Of a stretch of DNA of 64,000 nt, positions 24,422 to 34,494 are shown in pieces. Position numbers and translations under genes: made by a program. This stretch comes from a virus: positions 47,088 through 111,087 of the IMG/VR virus record IMGVR_UViG_3300008111_000019. One strand, 5' to 3'. Below the pieces are notes generated by a model, which did no database searches, was not told the origin of the DNA, and worked only from the letters and a program-made list of their open reading frames with translations. Position 1 is the stretch's first letter. Every line of letters starts with the position of its first letter.

Positions 24422-24884
24422 TTGATAGTACCTGTTTCATTTCAATTTCAGTTTTAAACGGGCCTTGATATGGATATCTTTGTAGTGTGATTAATTTAGG
24501 GCAAAAACTTTTAACCCACCCTTTATCAAACTTGATGATATAATAACCGGCACAGTACAGGCTTTTTGAATCTTCGCTCTTAGTAAATAGAGGTAATTTC
24601 TTTTTAATGTCATAAAGAGGATTATGAGGTTCGGCACTGGTACTGAATCCGTGAACCTCGTTGGGTAATGCAGTATCACTTTCTTTTACAATCTTAACAA
24701 CAAAAAAGTCTTTACCGAATTGGTCAGTTAAACTTTTTTTGTTTTCGTAGATCTTTATTCCTAACTCATTGCTCATTACAAAACGATTGTCTTCGTTTTT
24801 TCTTAGAGTAGCAATTTTTTCTCCGTCTTGTTCAACGATCCAAAATTTATTATCGATGATTGGTTTAGCATGTATCTCTGTCAT
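24408..24884 (-). CDS. Hypothetical protein
   Basis: 158-aa ORF, ATGA-coupled to RNase H. Confidence 0.75.
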   Translation of the reverse strand: MTEIHAKPIIDNKFWIVEQDGEKIATLRKNEDNRFVMSNELGIKIYENKKSLTDQFGKDFFVVKIVKESDTALPNEVHGFSTSAEPHNPLYDIKKKLPLFTKSEDSKSLYCAGYYIIKFDKGWVKSFCPKLITLQRYPYQGPFKTEIEMKQVLSSVSK

Positions 24885-25867
24885 AGTGTGTACCTCGCAT
24901 TTAGTGGTTCAGCATAACTTTGCGCCTGTTCGGCAATTTTTTTCAAATCATATAGATTACAAAATTTAATCAGTCTAATACCTACTTGACTGATATTTTT
25001 ATTTGCATCAATAGCCTGTGAGATAGTTGTGGCAATGATTTCTTTAATGTCGTCTGGTTGATGACCCAAATCAATCAGTCGACGATTGCGTTCATAATCT
25101 TCTAGTACACGATGTTCTTTGCCTTCGTGGTCAGTCCATCTCTGAAGCATGAGATTGTTCCACGCAAATCCTTTGGTTTTACGATCTTCGAACGCTTCAG
25201 TAAGACCCACTTTTTTGCTTGTGCCTTTAGTACGCACACCTGGATACGCCGAGAAGACATTATCACTGGTATCACCACGCATACATTTTTCAAACAAGAG
25301 CCATTCTGGATTTGGAGCGGCTTTTGCTTCTTTTGTTTTCTTATCAATGACTGGTTTACCTTTGTCATCAAAGATTCCTTCGTGTGTGATTACATGTTCC
25401 ATAACACCATTGTATTGTTTTACATTAGGTGCAATAAGTTGTACAAAATCTGTATCAGTTGAAATAATCACATGATTATCATCTGGATGACTTTGAATCC
25501 AACCTGCAATAAGATCGTCTGCTTCTAGTTGTGGATTTTGTAGTACTGTGCAGTTAGTTTTATCTGTAATAAAATCTTTGAATGTATCAAACGCTTCCCA
25601 AAATACTTTTTCTTCTTCTGCTTCTTTTTCTGTGTGTGCGGCACGAGCATCTGATCGATTTCGTTTATAAGGAGCATAATAGTCTTTGCGCCATGATCTA
25701 CCTTCTAAGCAGAAAATAACGTGAGTACCATTAAACTGCTGCCACGCTTTACGAATAGAATTTAGAGTTATGTGAAATGCCATGCCAAGTTTAATATCGG
25801 CATCGCCGTTAATAACATGTCTAGCACGAAAAAATGTGTTAGCAGTATCAACTAAAATATATGTCAT
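24881..25867 (-). CDS. rnh: 5'-3' exonuclease / T4 RNase H-like flap nuclease
   Basis: ILVDT.N, YK.NR, EADD, STDTDF.QL, GDTSDN motifs of the FEN/5'-3' exo family. Confidence 0.9.
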   Translation of the reverse strand: MTYILVDTANTFFRARHVINGDADIKLGMAFHITLNSIRKAWQQFNGTHVIFCLEGRSWRKDYYAPYKRNRSDARAAHTEKEAEEEKVFWEAFDTFKDFITDKTNCTVLQNPQLEADDLIAGWIQSHPDDNHVIISTDTDFVQLIAPNVKQYNGVMEHVITHEGIFDDKGKPVIDKKTKEAKAAPNPEWLLFEKCMRGDTSDNVFSAYPGVRTKGTSKKVGLTEAFEDRKTKGFAWNNLMLQRWTDHEGKEHRVLEDYERNRRLIDLGHQPDDIKEIIATTISQAIDANKNISQVGIRLIKFCNLYDLKKIAEQAQSYAEPLNARYTL

Positions 25868-26301
25868 TGATTATTCTTTTTCACAGTCTGTATATCTAAA
25901 GTACCTGTATCAACAGGACCACCAAAATCACCATCTACTACAACATTTGCACAAAGTTCACGGAACCATCGATCTACGATTTCTTCGTCTTTATCACCAT
26001 CTACACCGTAACCTTCTTGCTTTAATTGTAACACAAATTGGTCATTCCAGTCAAGTTCAAAAAATCCATTTCGTACATTATCTGAATTGACATGAGTATT
26101 CAAAACTCCTACCCAGGGTTCTTTTTTACGAGTAGCACGATCTTTTGGACTAAGTTTAGCCAATTCTTGTTCTTGAGCAATTTCTTTTAAACTGTTTTCG
26201 GCTTCTTCTTTTAATTTGGTAGCCTGCTCTAGTGCCTGTCTTGCTTCTTCTATATTGGCTTCGATTTTATCTAACCCAAATAATTTTTTAACGAATTTCA
26301 T
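25864..26301 (-). CDS. Hypothetical protein
   Basis: Start moved to ATG 26301 (TAATG coupling with queE stop). Confidence 0.7.
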   Translation of the reverse strand: MKFVKKLFGLDKIEANIEEARQALEQATKLKEEAENSLKEIAQEQELAKLSPKDRATRKKEPWVGVLNTHVNSDNVRNGFFELDWNDQFVLQLKQEGYGVDGDKDEEIVDRWFRELCANVVVDGDFGGPVDTGTLDIQTVKKNNQ

Positions 26302-27158
26302 TAAGTTCCCCACTCATTTTTAAACAATGGTACTTGTAGTCTGTCACTGTACCGTAATCCATTCTTCATAGCCAGTTCCGCAACACGGCGATTATTTAAA
26401 GTATAAACACTTTCAACTCCGCCTACAGGCATTAGATAGATTGGACCAGTAAACCCGTGTGCTCGATAGATATCGGCAGTCTCTATGGCTTCTTCGGCAT
26501 CTTCTTCTGTAGCAATTACAAATTTTAGATATGTGTATCCATATTCTTCGTATTCACAAACAACTTCAGGCTGTATAGCAACATGCCTCTCTTCTCCGGA
26601 ACAACTCAATTTTGCACTTACACTGAAAGTGATTTCTCTCCAAAAGTCGTGTGCATGATGACTTTTCCAGGTGTGTAAGTATAATTTAAAATCATCTGTT
26701 AATGCTTGAGTGCCATTAGTCTCAAATGTAATTTCTTTTAGATTTTGCATCTTAGGATGATCTAGCAGGTCTGGATATGCACGTTGCCAACCTAGTAAAG
26801 GTTCACCACCTGTGATAACAAGATGTTCATCTCGCCATTCGTTGAAAGGCAGAATCTCACAGATACGTTCTGCAATACCATCGCTAGTAAGCATAGGACT
26901 GAGATCTTTAAAACGAGGATCCCAACTTGCATAACTGTCACAGCCTGTGCTAACTAATGGCAATTCTTCATATTTTGTAAATTCATGCACTCTAGAAGCA
27001 ATGGCTTCAACTTCTTGGCTAGCCTCACCTCTAGGCATACCAAATCCCGCACACTTAAAGTTACAACCAAATGTACGTAAGAAAACAGAAGGCACGCCCA
27101 TGAAACGTCCTTCACCTTGAATACTATAAAATAGTTCAGCGATTTTAATTTTGCTCAT
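26301..27158 (-). CDS. queE: 7-carboxy-7-deazaguanine synthase (radical SAM), atypical Cys spacing
   Basis: IAELFYSIQGEG..G.PSVFLRTFGCNFKC...GCDS, VITGGEP, FETNGT, LKFV, IYLMP, RLQV. Confidence 0.85.
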   Translation of the reverse strand: MSKIKIAELFYSIQGEGRFMGVPSVFLRTFGCNFKCAGFGMPRGEASQEVEAIASRVHEFTKYEELPLVSTGCDSYASWDPRFKDLSPMLTSDGIAERICEILPFNEWRDEHLVITGGEPLLGWQRAYPDLLDHPKMQNLKEITFETNGTQALTDDFKLYLHTWKSHHAHDFWREITFSVSAKLSCSGEERHVAIQPEVVCEYEEYGYTYLKFVIATEEDAEEAIETADIYRAHGFTGPIYLMPVGGVESVYTLNNRRVAELAMKNGLRYSDRLQVPLFKNEWGT

Positions 27159-29867: not shown

Positions 29868-30057
29868 TTATGAGGTCTCCGGTTATCGCATTAATTTTCA
29901 TTCCGGATTCGTTGACAAAGTAAGGTTGGCACATTTTTTCACCGTCCCATTTTTGTCCGCACCAACATTGACCTTCTGAATTAATGACACAAGAATCAGT
30001 ACCGCAACAACGATTATCCATGTATTCGCCTGCAGTAGTAAATTTTAGGTCATTCAT
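29860..30057 (-). CDS. Small Cys-rich hypothetical protein
   Basis: CC..C..CWC..C; ATGA coupling. Confidence 0.6.
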   Translation of the reverse strand: MNDLKFTTAGEYMDNRCCGTDSCVINSEGQCWCGQKWDGEKMCQPYFVNESGMKINAITGDLIND

Positions 30058-30638
30058 TTAGTCCACCAATCTTCCCAAGGGAAATCAACCCAAACATCAT
30101 TTTCTGCTTTATTGATTTCTATTCCTACATAATCCATTTTTACATTACATTTGCTTGATAGATTATCTACCAACACAGCAAATTTTACATTATTGTTCCA
30201 AACTTCTTCCCAGGCCGGGTCTTCTGGGAAACAACCACTAGGCCAGTCTTTCATAATCCAATTAAATGTTGCTCCGGTGTCGTTGATATCGTCAACTAAC
30301 AGAATTTCTTTATAAGTTCCATTTTCTAACAAATCACCTGCGGCTTCTAATATACCCGCAACATCTACGGGATTTTCTACAAATCTTTCTCTAGAATTAG
30401 GACCAAGGGCATCTTCGGCCATCCATAAATTTGATTCTCCGCTGTTGCCGTCTCGCAAACTGACGTTTAATGTGTGCATAGGCACATTTAAATATTGACT
30501 AATCATCACAGCGGGAACAAGGCCCCCTCTAGTGATGCCTACTATATAATCGGGCCGCCATCCACTGATTATAATATCTCTACATAATTTAGAAACTAAT
30601 CCGTTCAGTTCAGACTGTTTGATTACGTGCTTGTTCAT
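30054..30638 (-). CDS. Type I phosphoribosyltransferase (purine PRTase/Gpt-like)
   Basis: VGITRGG, LLVDDINDTGAT PRPP-binding motif, WVDFPWE. Confidence 0.85.
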   Translation of the reverse strand: MNKHVIKQSELNGLVSKLCRDIIISGWRPDYIVGITRGGLVPAVMISQYLNVPMHTLNVSLRDGNSGESNLWMAEDALGPNSRERFVENPVDVAGILEAAGDLLENGTYKEILLVDDINDTGATFNWIMKDWPSGCFPEDPAWEEVWNNNVKFAVLVDNLSSKCNVKMDYVGIEINKAENDVWVDFPWEDWWTK

Positions 30639-31080
30639 ATCTCTCCTTTAGATATTGTTCGTGTTGAACCCATTTATTATTAACTAAAAATCCCCATTCA
30701 CGTTTGTGGGGTCCGGGCATAAACAGTGTCCAAGCGGTCACGCCAGGCTTAAGCTCAATACGATGATAAGAGTTAGGACTACATATACGAAAATGGCCGG
30801 GTCCTCTCCATTTACGTATCTCACAAGATTTATTGCCTTGTTCGTCAAACTGCGGAATCCATTCATAGTATCCACCTTTCAAAATTAATGTAGCATAGGG
30901 CCATGGATGATCGTGAACATCGTCTGGATCACCTTTTAGGAACTTGTGTAAAAATACGTTGAAGGGAAAACGTTTACGATCTTTTAAAAAGAGATAATAC
31001 CGTTCGAGATACGGTTCGTTATGCACACGATCAAAAATGATACGTTTGCGATCTAGTTTTTCAAGTAGTTTCAACAACAT
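30610..31080 (-). CDS. Cupin-like protein
   Basis: HDHPW..LILKGGYYE..HRIEL..WTLF..GP..REWGF. Confidence 0.6.
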   Translation of the reverse strand: MLLKLLEKLDRKRIIFDRVHNEPYLERYYLFLKDRKRFPFNVFLHKFLKGDPDDVHDHPWPYATLILKGGYYEWIPQFDEQGNKSCEIRKWRGPGHFRICSPNSYHRIELKPGVTAWTLFMPGPHKREWGFLVNNKWVQHEQYLKERYEQARNQTV

Positions 31081-31483
31081 TAAAAATCTCCTCGTCTAGA
31101 TATCGTCTCAGTTCTTTATCTGTAGGCTGTACAGTGTAGTTTTGTTTAAAAAAGATTTCATAACTATCTGAGCCATATTTGCCAATGCCATATAACATTG
31201 TAGCATCATTTCCGTCCCAAGTCAAATAGTCTTGACTCATTTTAATCAAACGAGTATATCGGACATTAACCATTCCTAAAGGTTGGATTATACTTTTGAC
31301 AAACTGTTCATTAGCGGCTAACAAAGCCTGTGGATTAGGAAACCAATATAAAAACTCTGGCAATGTTGTTTTTACAGATTTTCTACCAGTTTGGTTAAGC
31401 ATGATTACTCCTACCATGTGTTCCCATGCATTGGAAATCTGTTGTTGCACCATTAGATTATCGTGTAAGGGTGTAAACCACAT
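31061..31483 (-). CDS. HhH-GPD DNA glycosylase (MBD4-like)
   Basis: IMLNQT, IQPLGM..R, LYGIGKYGSDSY HhH motif, DKEL. Confidence 0.8.
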   Translation of the reverse strand: MWFTPLHDNLMVQQQISNAWEHMVGVIMLNQTGRKSVKTTLPEFLYWFPNPQALLAANEQFVKSIIQPLGMVNVRYTRLIKMSQDYLTWDGNDATMLYGIGKYGSDSYEIFFKQNYTVQPTDKELRRYLDEEIFNVVETT

Positions 31484-32527: not shown

Positions 32528-33367
32528 TTATCTCGGTGCAAAATCTTGTTGTAGTTTAATGTTGTCAAAGAATTCTTTCTTTGTACTCTGATCGTCTTTG
32601 AAAGCACCTTTAAGAACTGTGGTCTGTGTAAGACTAGAATGTGCCATAATACCACGATTCTCACAGCAACCGTGAACTGCTTGAATATAAATTCCTACAT
32701 CTTTGGCATCTGTGGCTCTCATGATTTCCCGAGCAATGTCATTAGCAAGTTCCTCCTGGAGAGTACCTCGTCTCGCACACCACTGAGCGATGCGTGTGTA
32801 CTTTGAGAGCCCGATGAGTTTCTCAGCAGCAATAAGACCAATATAAGCAACGCCACTAACGGGTTGATGATGATGGCTACACATAGAGCGCAACTCACTA
32901 CGAACAACCAGCATACCTTCATACCGATCCTCCGTATCATTTGGAAATGCTGTTGCGTCTGGTGCTGGTTCATATCTTCCTGCCATTATTTCATTAAAGT
33001 ACATTTTAGCCAAGCGTCTCGCTGTACCCTGCGAGTTAGGATCGTTTTCACGATCAATCAGCAAGCGATCAAGCACTAGTTCAAATGCTTCTGTTGCTTC
33101 ATCAATTAATTTCTCTATATCACCTTCGTGCAAGTAGTCACTGATGTTGTCACCTGCCCAGAAACGTTTCTGGTCACGTTTCATTTTAAAGCGAAGATGA
33201 TCGCCTAGATATGCTTCTTGATAGCCACCGTCACCTGCCATAGCGTCTAGTGCTGTTTCCTTTTTAACATATACTTCTTTGTTTAACGGAGTATATTCAT
33301 CTGATTTAAACGGTGCTCTAAGATCACCGTTAATTGTTGGATCTAGTTTAAATTCTGTTTTGCTCAA
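32528..33367 (-). CDS. folE: GTP cyclohydrolase I
   Basis: TARRLAKMY, SMCSHHHQP, IGLSKY.R, RGTLQE, HGC..RG, T.T; TTG start. Confidence 0.95.
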   Translation of the reverse strand: MSKTEFKLDPTINGDLRAPFKSDEYTPLNKEVYVKKETALDAMAGDGGYQEAYLGDHLRFKMKRDQKRFWAGDNISDYLHEGDIEKLIDEATEAFELVLDRLLIDRENDPNSQGTARRLAKMYFNEIMAGRYEPAPDATAFPNDTEDRYEGMLVVRSELRSMCSHHHQPVSGVAYIGLIAAEKLIGLSKYTRIAQWCARRGTLQEELANDIAREIMRATDAKDVGIYIQAVHGCCENRGIMAHSSLTQTTVLKGAFKDDQSTKKEFFDNIKLQQDFAPR

Positions 33368-33400
33368 TTATAATTCTCCGAGTTATTGTCGTGGATGACA
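33368..33400 (-). promoter_or_regulatory. Candidate compact pseudoknot over the folE RBS
   Basis: TGTC-ATCCAC-GACA-ATAACTC-GGAG; loop TCC complementary to SD GGA. Confidence 0.45.
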
Positions 33401-33402
33401 TA

Positions 33403-34494
33403 TTATTTTAACATCTCTAGTAAATTATCGCAACTAAAGAAATCTAATTTTAAAATATCTACCTGTTTATTTAGGTTTATGAAATGTCTTTCGTAGTTTT
33501 CCATGTAATTGACAATTTGGTCAATAATCAATGGTCTATGTGCTTTGTATGCATCGAATGATTCTGTCCATACTGACGGATACTTAAAACAATCTAAAGC
33601 CATTTCTCTGTAACTGAGTCGGTCAGGTACCATAGGAATAGCATCTACTAATGCACCTTCGTACCAACTGATGCCTAGTGTTTCTTGTAGATTGGCACTG
33701 AATACCAATTTTGCTTCACCTAACAAGTTATGATACTCATTCTTTGATAATTGCTGATCCTGGCACACAACAAACTCGTACTGTGGCAATTGTTCTTTTA
33801 GATCTCTAAAAATTTCAACTTGTTTCTCAGGAGCAATACGATGCGGAAAAAGAATTAAATCTCTCTTAGGCATATTTTTATACATCAGCAGAGTATCTGC
33901 CATATACTCCATTGGCCAACCTGTCCGAACAATTTTTTTAGAATCTAACAAATGTTTTTTGTCTTCATTATAATAGCCAAGCCCATCATTTAATTCTAAT
34001 AGATTGTTTAAGAACATTTCAATATGAAAGTCTGTGGCAAAATAGTTGTAGTTGATAGCATGAAAGAAAGACTTTTCAGCGTGTCTAACCCAGGGAGCAT
34101 CTCCAATAAGCCTTCCTAAAAAGTCTTGCGGATCATAACTGCCAGCATGCCATAAAGCGTGTATCTTGACAGGTATGCCAAGAAGTTCACTCATGTACTT
34201 TAAGTTTATGATACCGGGATGCCAAGCATCAGTAAAGATGAACTGATCATTAGGCTTAACTGATCCGGAGCAAAATAACCTACTAATCTGTTCAACTTGA
34301 CTAGACTTATAGATATTAGTGCCGCCGAAATTAAGAAAGGCGCCAGGAGTAGTGGCACGAGGAATATCCTCAGGGCCACTGATAACTTGAACATCATGTC
34401 CGTGTCTCCGCAAAAGATCGGGTAGGTGGGTTTTCCACTGACCCGTGTATCTTGTTTCTACTGATTCGAGATCAACGAGAAAAACGTTGCTCAT
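33403..34494 (-). CDS. GT-B fold glycosyltransferase (GT4-like)
   Basis: ILFPHRIAPEKQ..ETLGISWYEG..P.VPDRLSY.E (E-x7-E motif); lies between queD-like and folE. Confidence 0.75.
   Translation of the reverse strand: MSNVFLVDLESVETRYTGQWKTHLPDLLRRHGHDVQVISGPEDIPRATTPGAFLNFGGTNIYKSSQVEQISRLFCSGSVKPNDQFIFTDAWHPGIINLKYMSELLGIPVKIHALWHAGSYDPQDFLGRLIGDAPWVRHAEKSFFHAINYNYFATDFHIEMFLNNLLELNDGLGYYNEDKKHLLDSKKIVRTGWPMEYMADTLLMYKNMPKRDLILFPHRIAPEKQVEIFRDLKEQLPQYEFVVCQDQQLSKNEYHNLLGEAKLVFSANLQETLGISWYEGALVDAIPMVPDRLSYREMALDCFKYPSVWTESFDAYKAHRPLIIDQIVNYMENYERHFINLNKQVDILKLDFFSCDNLLEMLK

Follow-up and report, generated by a model that had tools for sequence, protein, structure and literature searches.

The folE leader and its genomic setting

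The DNA analysed here, referred to as the window, is a stretch of 64,000 nucleotides from a virus record in IMG/VR (IMGVR_UViG_3300008111_000019). The record is 111 kb long, with a completeness estimate of 31%, and belongs to a giant lake phage whose relatives are phages of 330-356 kb. On the minus strand of the window, an ORF of 363 aa is followed by folE, the gene for GTP cyclohydrolase I, and the gap between the two ORFs is 35 nt (Table 1). The leader reads ...UAA UA-UGUC-AUCCAC-GACA-AUAACUC-GGAG-AAUUAUAA-UUG, and thus holds a short hairpin, a linker and a Shine-Dalgarno (SD) sequence between the stop codon of one gene and the start codon of the next. The protein cluster of the 363-aa ORF adjoins the motif in 117 of 189 loci. 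A preliminary description, made from the letters alone, had read the spacer as a 4-bp stem P1 with a loop UCC complementary to the GGA of the SD, and had associated it with folE as the first step of a biosynthetic pathway. Re-reading the sequence found all of these parts as described, and the association with folE is borne out by a Pfam match of the gene product and by the restriction of the motif to folE alone.

The Pfam family GTP_cyclohydroI (PF01227) matches residues 102-270 of the window's FolE (E 1.4e-39). The UUG start is supported by many relatives, in which the protein is conserved from residues 1-5 onward and an ATG or TTG start stands at the matching position. TTG serves as the start codon in 66 of the 135 distinct motif-bearing folE leaders; such starts are usually far rarer in bacterial and phage genes. 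Ahead of the Pfam domain lies an N-terminal extension of about 100 aa (residues 1-100), which is variable, as relatives start at query residues 1-5, about 28-37 or about 54-68.

The motif is placed within a gene-to-gene spacer in which no terminator-like site was found, and promoter-like sites in the window are no commoner than in shuffled sequence, which together fits control at the level of translation. A weak promoter-like site (TTGCGA-17-TAAAAT with TG) at 33405-33433 on the minus strand extends as far as the upstream gene's stop codon; RNA transcribed from it would begin roughly at P1.

Table 1. Features of the folE leader and of neighbouring genes (window coordinates unless a locus is named)
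Feature	Position	Strand	Remarks
363-aa ORF upstream of folE	33403-34494	minus	stop UAA 33403-33405, 2 nt 5' of P1
P1 5' strand UGUC	33397-33400	minus	sequence and covariation
Hairpin loop AUCCAC	33391-33396	minus	A1 is L1; U2-C3-C4 is the P2 5' strand; then A5 and C6
P1 3' strand GACA	33387-33390	minus	sequence and covariation
Linker L3 AUAACUC	33380-33386	minus	class A form; class B counterpart UUAACAUC
Shine-Dalgarno GGAG	33376-33379	minus	GGA 33377-33379 is the P2 3' strand
SD-to-start spacer AAUUAUAA, 8 nt	33368-33375	minus	varies among relatives, usually 5-9 nt
folE, GTP cyclohydrolase I, 279 aa	32528-33367	minus	downstream of leader; UUG start 33365-33367
HhH-GPD protein	31061-31483	minus	downstream of folE
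Phosphoribosyltransferase	30054-30638	minus	downstream of folE
QueE-like radical SAM protein	26301-27158	minus	PDB 6nhl/4njg, E 8e-7
5'-3' exonuclease	24881-25867	minus	downstream of folE
ORF of about 130 aa between motif and folE	L018:2594-2992; L071:2603-2995		also in L019

Distribution, sequence forms and conserved bases

The motif occurs in about 190 fetched loci of uncultured phages. Each locus has a single copy, and what immediately follows it is in every case folE or an ORF of about 130 aa plus folE. In the latter arrangement, seen in L018, L019 and L071, it heads a two-gene unit, and the small ORF of L018 and L071 gave no match in sequence searches of Pfam, PHROGs or PDB. Among FolE relatives in IMG/VR with 77-91% identity, the same leader is found in about 60 of 80 loci. 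A scan with a degenerate DNA pattern recovered the motif, unchanged, ahead of FolE proteins down to 38% identity (L095); FolE lies directly downstream in 82 of the 120 matches, the remainder being chance matches without the hairpin. A second FolE clade, with proteins of 225 aa, likewise bears the motif, and some related folE genes have no such element (L003, L024, L030 and L077). The sequence upstream of the motif is unrelated among loci, consisting either of a gene end or of a promoter-like TTGACA-N17-TATAAT. A covariance model of the motif finds a single copy in its own genome, at 49.8 bits, the runner-up scoring 14 bits; no extra copies, of the kind left by a general operator or repeat, were found there.

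Several observations lie beside this pattern. At L275 the motif is located about 430 nt upstream of folE. The promoter-like TTGACA-N17-TATAAT stands about 30-60 nt upstream of folE in L075-L077, L080, L003, L024, L030 and L023, and its spacer holds a conserved CCTAAATAA, possibly the mark of a dual early/late promoter. In L477, L479, L487 and L490, the same CUAACUCGGAGA ribosome-binding stretch comes after a 9-bp hairpin, GGGAGUGGG-AUAA-CCCACUCCC; this hairpin precedes an ORF of no known identity, not FolE.

The element exists in two forms. Class A, which includes the window, consists of the stem around AUCC[A/U]C, 0-3 variable nucleotides and (U/A)AAC-UC-GGAG, with a closing pair C-G or G-C. 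Class B has the form GGCA-AUCC[A/U/C]C-UGCC-UUAAC-AUC-GGAG, with a closing pair A-U and a linker longer by one A, and this association of closing pair and linker length holds in each of the 53 distinct cores. Three parts are nearly invariant: the loop AUCCNC, the linker (U/A)AAC(A)UC, in particular its AAC and UC, and the SD GGAG. A1, which forms L1, is A in 101 of 101 distinct sequences. Among 135 distinct leaders, 105 have A at loop position 5, 27 have U, three have C and none has G, and the distance from SD to start is mostly 5-9 nt. Loops of 7 nt, AUACCUC and AUCCCUC, also occur, paired with AUA-GGAA, which would permit CCU:AGG.

Searches of catalogues and genomes returned no earlier record of the motif. 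Rfam 15 scans of 801 nt, 251 nt and 58-66 nt around the leader gave nothing relevant. As a control, cmscan with Rfam 15 at E up to 1 also missed the validated type III preQ1-I aptamer of E. coli K-12 yhhQ (L469:9176-9211), so that a blank Rfam result is weak and does not exclude very small knots. The class B pattern had 0 matches in 185,579 bacterial and archaeal species genomes. Against cultured phages, megablast of the locus gave no match and blastn of the motif gave only chance matches resembling ribosome-binding sites. No description of the motif was found in the literature searched, which included few subscription journals.

Covariation and the pseudoknot

Folding energies of 38-nt and 66-nt stretches are no better than those of shuffled sequence (z about 0), which makes single-sequence folding uninformative for so small an element; the hairpin alone is predicted at -3.1 kcal/mol. 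Covariation was assessed on 101 distinct homologous leaders. In the MAFFT alignment, classes A and B fall out of register after UAAC, and this alignment was used for P1 only, while a trimmed alignment was used for P2. P1 is paired in 97% of cases, its inner three pairs in 100%, and all four pairs have changed on both sides. P2 is paired in 98.7%. Its C3-G and C4-G pairs show no variation among the 101 leaders, so that only the third P2 pair is informative. This pair is U-A in 89 of the distinct sequences, C-G in eight and mismatched in four. The covariation score is 0.52, compared with 0.13 in shuffles, none of 500 of which reach 0.52, and partners slid along the sequence score at most 0.09.

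Larger collections extend this result. In IMG/VR, class B copies with a changed U2 occur in three loci, all changed to C and all with GGGAG; the converse scan, for class B copies with an SD other than GGA, returned the same three loci and 47 chance matches without the hairpin. About 20 distinct ACCCNC loops turned up in the metagenome collection, every one with AUCGGGAGA (GGGAG), and L404, with AACCAC and GGAG, is the exception. Tabulated for class B, the combinations are U2 with GGA in 73 cases, C2 with GGG in 19, A2 with GGA in one, and C2 with GGA or U2 with GGG in none. In a tree built from the FolE proteins downstream, at least three positions hold the C/G form: L447 next to L089 and L181, L444 next to L151, and, within the 225-aa clade, a large paraphyletic group. 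Such apparently independent switches could also be produced by recombination of leaders. In class A, scanning for an ACCC loop combined with GGGAG, the double variant, gave chance matches only, and some lineages ahead of FolE keep GGAG with a mismatched loop, namely ACCCAC in L478 and L488 and AACCAC in the L481 group. The mismatches are A.A in L404 and the L481 group and C.A in L478 and L488, in three lineages in all.

Selection for translation itself may account for part of the conservation of the SD and its neighbours. Comparative evidence nevertheless supports well a pseudoknot whose outermost P2 pair can be lost. The preliminary description had proposed an H-type pseudoknot over the ribosome-binding site and had named a collection of related leaders as its test; in that collection P1 and the UCC/GGA complementarity are conserved, P1 and one P2 pair covary, and the SD is included in P2. 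It had also cautioned that stems so short might arise by chance. Functionless complementarity in an AT-rich spacer, which would agree with the short stems and the unremarkable folding energy, is left with next to no probability by hundreds of conserved, covarying copies, all at folE. A palindromic DNA site for a protein was also considered; such a site would keep its sequence, yet the stem sequence changes while pairing is maintained, and a DNA-level site is rejected on that ground.

Pathway genes around folE and cultured relatives

The genes encoded near folE point to a 7-deazaguanine-type pathway. The window and its relatives share a QueE-like protein, a phosphoribosyltransferase, a HIT protein and an HhH-GPD protein, and a protein of the PTPS/QueD family is present in five of five large relatives. 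PTPS, QueC and TGT were not detected by Pfam in the phage's own record of 111 kb, which is incomplete. Neither QueC nor TGT/DpdA has a Pfam match in this incomplete record or in any of 10 large relatives, of which three are at least 96% complete; preQ0 and preQ1 are on that account not obvious products or ligands. Given the QueE-like and PTPS proteins and the absence of Pfam matches to QueC and TGT/DpdA, the product of the branch is likely 7-carboxy-7-deazaguanine (CDG) or a compound derived from it, rather than preQ0 or preQ1. Neighbouring ORFs of 363, 505, 129 and 168 aa had no match in sequence searches of Pfam, PHROGs and PDB.

The cultured phages with the nearest FolE proteins, Sinorhizobium phage Phosso and Vibrio phage 2.275.O, do not carry the motif. 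Phosso (469 kb; L470, PV764938, 149932-155633) has the same gene order as the window: glycosylase, 363-aa glycosyltransferase, small ORF, folE-like gene and, further on, a queE-like gene. Its counterpart of the 363-aa ORF, identical in length and position, is annotated as a glycosyltransferase, and the phage could serve as an experimental relative. Vibrio phage 2.275.O (MG592671), a jumbo phage, encodes a full preQ1-type cluster, with QueF, a YhhQ-like transporter and a queuosine biosynthesis protein annotated. Its folE leader (L471:2235-2265) holds a different element, which has a weak Rfam PreQ1 match of 12.5 bits, the gathering score being 39.

Proposed mechanism and alternative explanations

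The folE pseudoknot leader is a real, widespread and uncatalogued element specific to phage folE, and it is a strong riboswitch candidate. The reading given the most weight here, with a probability somewhat short of even, is that it acts as a translational OFF riboswitch for a guanine-like metabolite of the pathway. A cis-acting RNA of about 26-30 nt would form a minimal H-type pseudoknot on the folE leader, composed of P1 (4-5 bp), L1 (a single A), P2 (UCC paired with the GGA of the SD GGAG), L2 (N-C) and L3, (U/A)AAC(A)UC. Formation of the knot would let the loop capture the GGA of the SD. Three P2 pairs are expected to be marginal, so something would have to stabilise them; A1, C6 and the C before GGA, which are nearly invariant and unpaired, would surround the P1/P2 junction, at the places that hold the ligand in preQ1-I riboswitches. 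It is this combination of a P2 of only three pairs with nearly invariant junction bases that suggests a riboswitch. A product or intermediate of the FolE/QueD/QueE branch with a guanine face could pair with C6 while stacked between P1 and P2. Candidate ligands are CDG or a derivative and, less likely, preQ0, preQ1 or a pterin. A riboswitch that senses a deazaguanine or a pterin was the candidate put forward in the preliminary description, and it stays a candidate here. Binding would lock the SD in P2 and lower the production of FolE, providing feedback at the entry of the pathway.

A further-reaching version of this proposal is fairly unlikely. On this version, the element would stand for a new class of riboswitch confined to phages and, at about 26-30 nt, would be the smallest natural aptamer known, sensing CDG or another non-preQ1 7-deazapurine or pterin intermediate. 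It would thereby gate GTP into a DNA-hypermodification route that lacks QueC and a TGT-type DpdA and possibly proceeds through a nucleotide-level phosphoribosyltransferase.

Alternatively, the leader may be a translational operator bound by a protein, a phage product (perhaps FolE or another pathway enzyme) or a host protein, which blocks the SD by binding the loop and linker; the pseudoknot would then be the bound form or a competitor. Autogenous translational repression is common in phages, and in the leaders regulated by T4 gp43, gp32, RegA and ribosomal proteins, the repressor binds at a loop or linker and the SD is blocked. The phage folE leader, in which a hairpin of invariant loop sequence lies immediately ahead of the SD, matches the T4 gp43 operator in architecture, and conserved unpaired bases are equally expected of a protein site. 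However, the element is tied to one gene and one copy per genome, and it spans divergent phages whose FolE N-termini differ (query start 1, about 35 or about 55-68). No co-occurring regulator is prominent among its neighbours either, the commonest of them being present in 117 of 189 loci. In addition, the coupled change of U-A to C-G between loop and SD is a prediction of RNA-RNA pairing, not of protein contact, and favours the former. A protein operator thus holds a minor, though appreciable, share of the probability.

Control may also be independent of any ligand or sensor protein, the knot serving for constitutive damping or tuning of FolE translation, for a response to temperature or Mg2+, or, at loci with a promoter close by on the 5' side, for protection of the mRNA 5' end. 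The knot is tiny and marginally stable, as the hairpin energy indicates, and the weak TTG start of half of the folE genes suggests selection for low FolE output. Moreover, in many relatives the hairpin starts 6-10 nt past a -10-like box and could therefore be a 5'-terminal stem-loop, whereas the window element is internal to an operon spacer with no clear 5' end. Plain damping, however, does not require A1, C6, AAC and UC to stay invariant and unpaired while FolE diverges to 38% identity, and the related folE genes without the element likewise count against this explanation. This explanation is considered rather unlikely.

If a ligand does bind, the element would be the most compact natural riboswitch yet and among very few native to phages, and it would show how far a preQ1-I-type knot can be pared down and retuned. 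It would also offer a sensor or reporter handle on a pathway of 7-deazaguanine type, as yet uncharacterised, which is common among giant aquatic phages without the usual QueC and DpdA genes. Even without a ligand, the leader exemplifies, clearly and in abundance, a pseudoknot that sequesters the SD and persists over deep divergence, and it is a useful metagenome marker for the folE gene cluster.

Comparison with known systems

Small RNA structures at the ribosome-binding site of a phage gene are well known from T4, where the gp43 hairpin and the gene 32 leader pseudoknot lie upstream of, or overlap, the ribosome-binding site of the regulated gene. The T4 operators are recognised by the protein that their own gene encodes, and none is known from more than one phage lineage. 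The phage folE element is likewise a small hairpin or pseudoknot at such a site; it differs in its covarying loop-SD pairing and in having no known binding protein.

Two other groups of riboswitches share its gene or its ligand family. The preQ1-II and preQ1-III riboswitches (RF01054, RF02680) are HLout pseudoknots with P1-P4, about twice as large; neither gave an Rfam match, and the whole phage leader is 35 nt. The THF-II riboswitch, or folE RNA motif (RF02977), is described as a longer hairpin with internal loops, which occurs in Gram-negative bacteria and binds tetrahydrofolate (PMC9881143, PMC11317127). It resembles the phage element in lying in the folE 5' leader and controlling translation. 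Its topology is different, the phage element being a hairpin of 4-5 bp with a 6-nt loop, and Rfam gave no THF-II match on the leader.

The closest known relative in form is the preQ1-I riboswitch. In this family, a conserved C sits directly 5' of the P1 3' strand, the base before it being U in type I and A in types II and III (PMC11625349), and a conserved U or UU right after the P1 5' strand contacts the ligand (PMC11625349, PMC10622847). In type III members, P1 is short, L1 is one base long and L2 three, and the loop, rich in pyrimidines, pairs with the SD; the specificity C has an A before it, and a 30-mer binds preQ1 at about 50 nM (PMC11625349, PMC10622847). An example is the yhhQ leader of E. 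coli and Shigella (PDB 8FZA; PMC10622847, reviewed in PMC11625349), which belongs to the Rfam family RF00522 and reads AUUGGG-UUCCCUCAC-CCCAAU-GGUUAAUC-AAAAAGG in E. coli.

The phage element might accordingly be a divergent true member, a further-shrunken type III that binds preQ1 or preQ0 made by the host. The series UUCCCUCAC ... GGUUAAUC ... AAGG of E. coli yhhQ does resemble AUCC(C)UC or AUCCAC ... UUAACAUC ... GGAG of the phages, AC or UC stands before the P1 3' strand as in the preQ1-I types, and the weak PreQ1-like match of the related Vibrio phage 2.275.O lies ahead of folE. Against membership, though with little weight given the blank yhhQ control, Rfam PreQ1 gave no match on 58-66 nt at E up to 10; in the other direction, the covariance model of the motif did not find the E. 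coli yhhQ aptamer. The conserved U or UU at L1 is replaced by an invariant A, and the A-rich L3, which occupies the P1 minor groove in preQ1-I, has as its counterpart an L3 of 7-8 nt with two or three A and no A tract; a preQ1-I-style pocket is for this reason not assured. The loop, at 6 nt, is three shorter than the 9 nt of type III, and together with the blank PreQ1 search this agrees with the preliminary description, which had noted that the sequence departs from the preQ1-I consensus by its shorter loop. The SD is GGAG in place of AAGG, and the regulated gene is folE, while preQ1-I controls a queuosine-precursor transporter or a que operon. As for placement, the gene behind the leader opens the pathway, and genes of the QueE-like and PTPS kinds are present, while Pfam QueC and TGT are absent from 11 records, the phage's own incomplete one included; these phages also have no Pfam match for QueC or the QueF route. 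True membership is accordingly rated improbable. Since two defining features, the U or UU after the P1 5' strand and the A-rich L3, are absent, the element is not filed as a preQ1-I member.

The likeness that remains is extensive. The preliminary description had pointed to a preQ1-I topology with a C at the ligand-pairing position, and both hold: C6, immediately 5' of the P1 3' strand, is C in all distinct leaders, and the pseudoknot, with its one-base L1 and the SD in P2, is closest to type III. As in type III, an H-type pseudoknot of about 30 nt has a short P1 and the same order of parts, and the loop C's pair with the SD, whose burial is proposed to exert control in the phage element as well. 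A very short L2 ends in [A/U]C before the P1 3' strand, and this C is the base that confers specificity in preQ1-I by Watson-Crick pairing. The linker contains UUAA..UC with a similar start, and both elements are tied to the pathway from GTP to 7-deazaguanines. By this analogy, the phage element would work in the manner of a preQ1-I riboswitch, set at the entry of the pathway.
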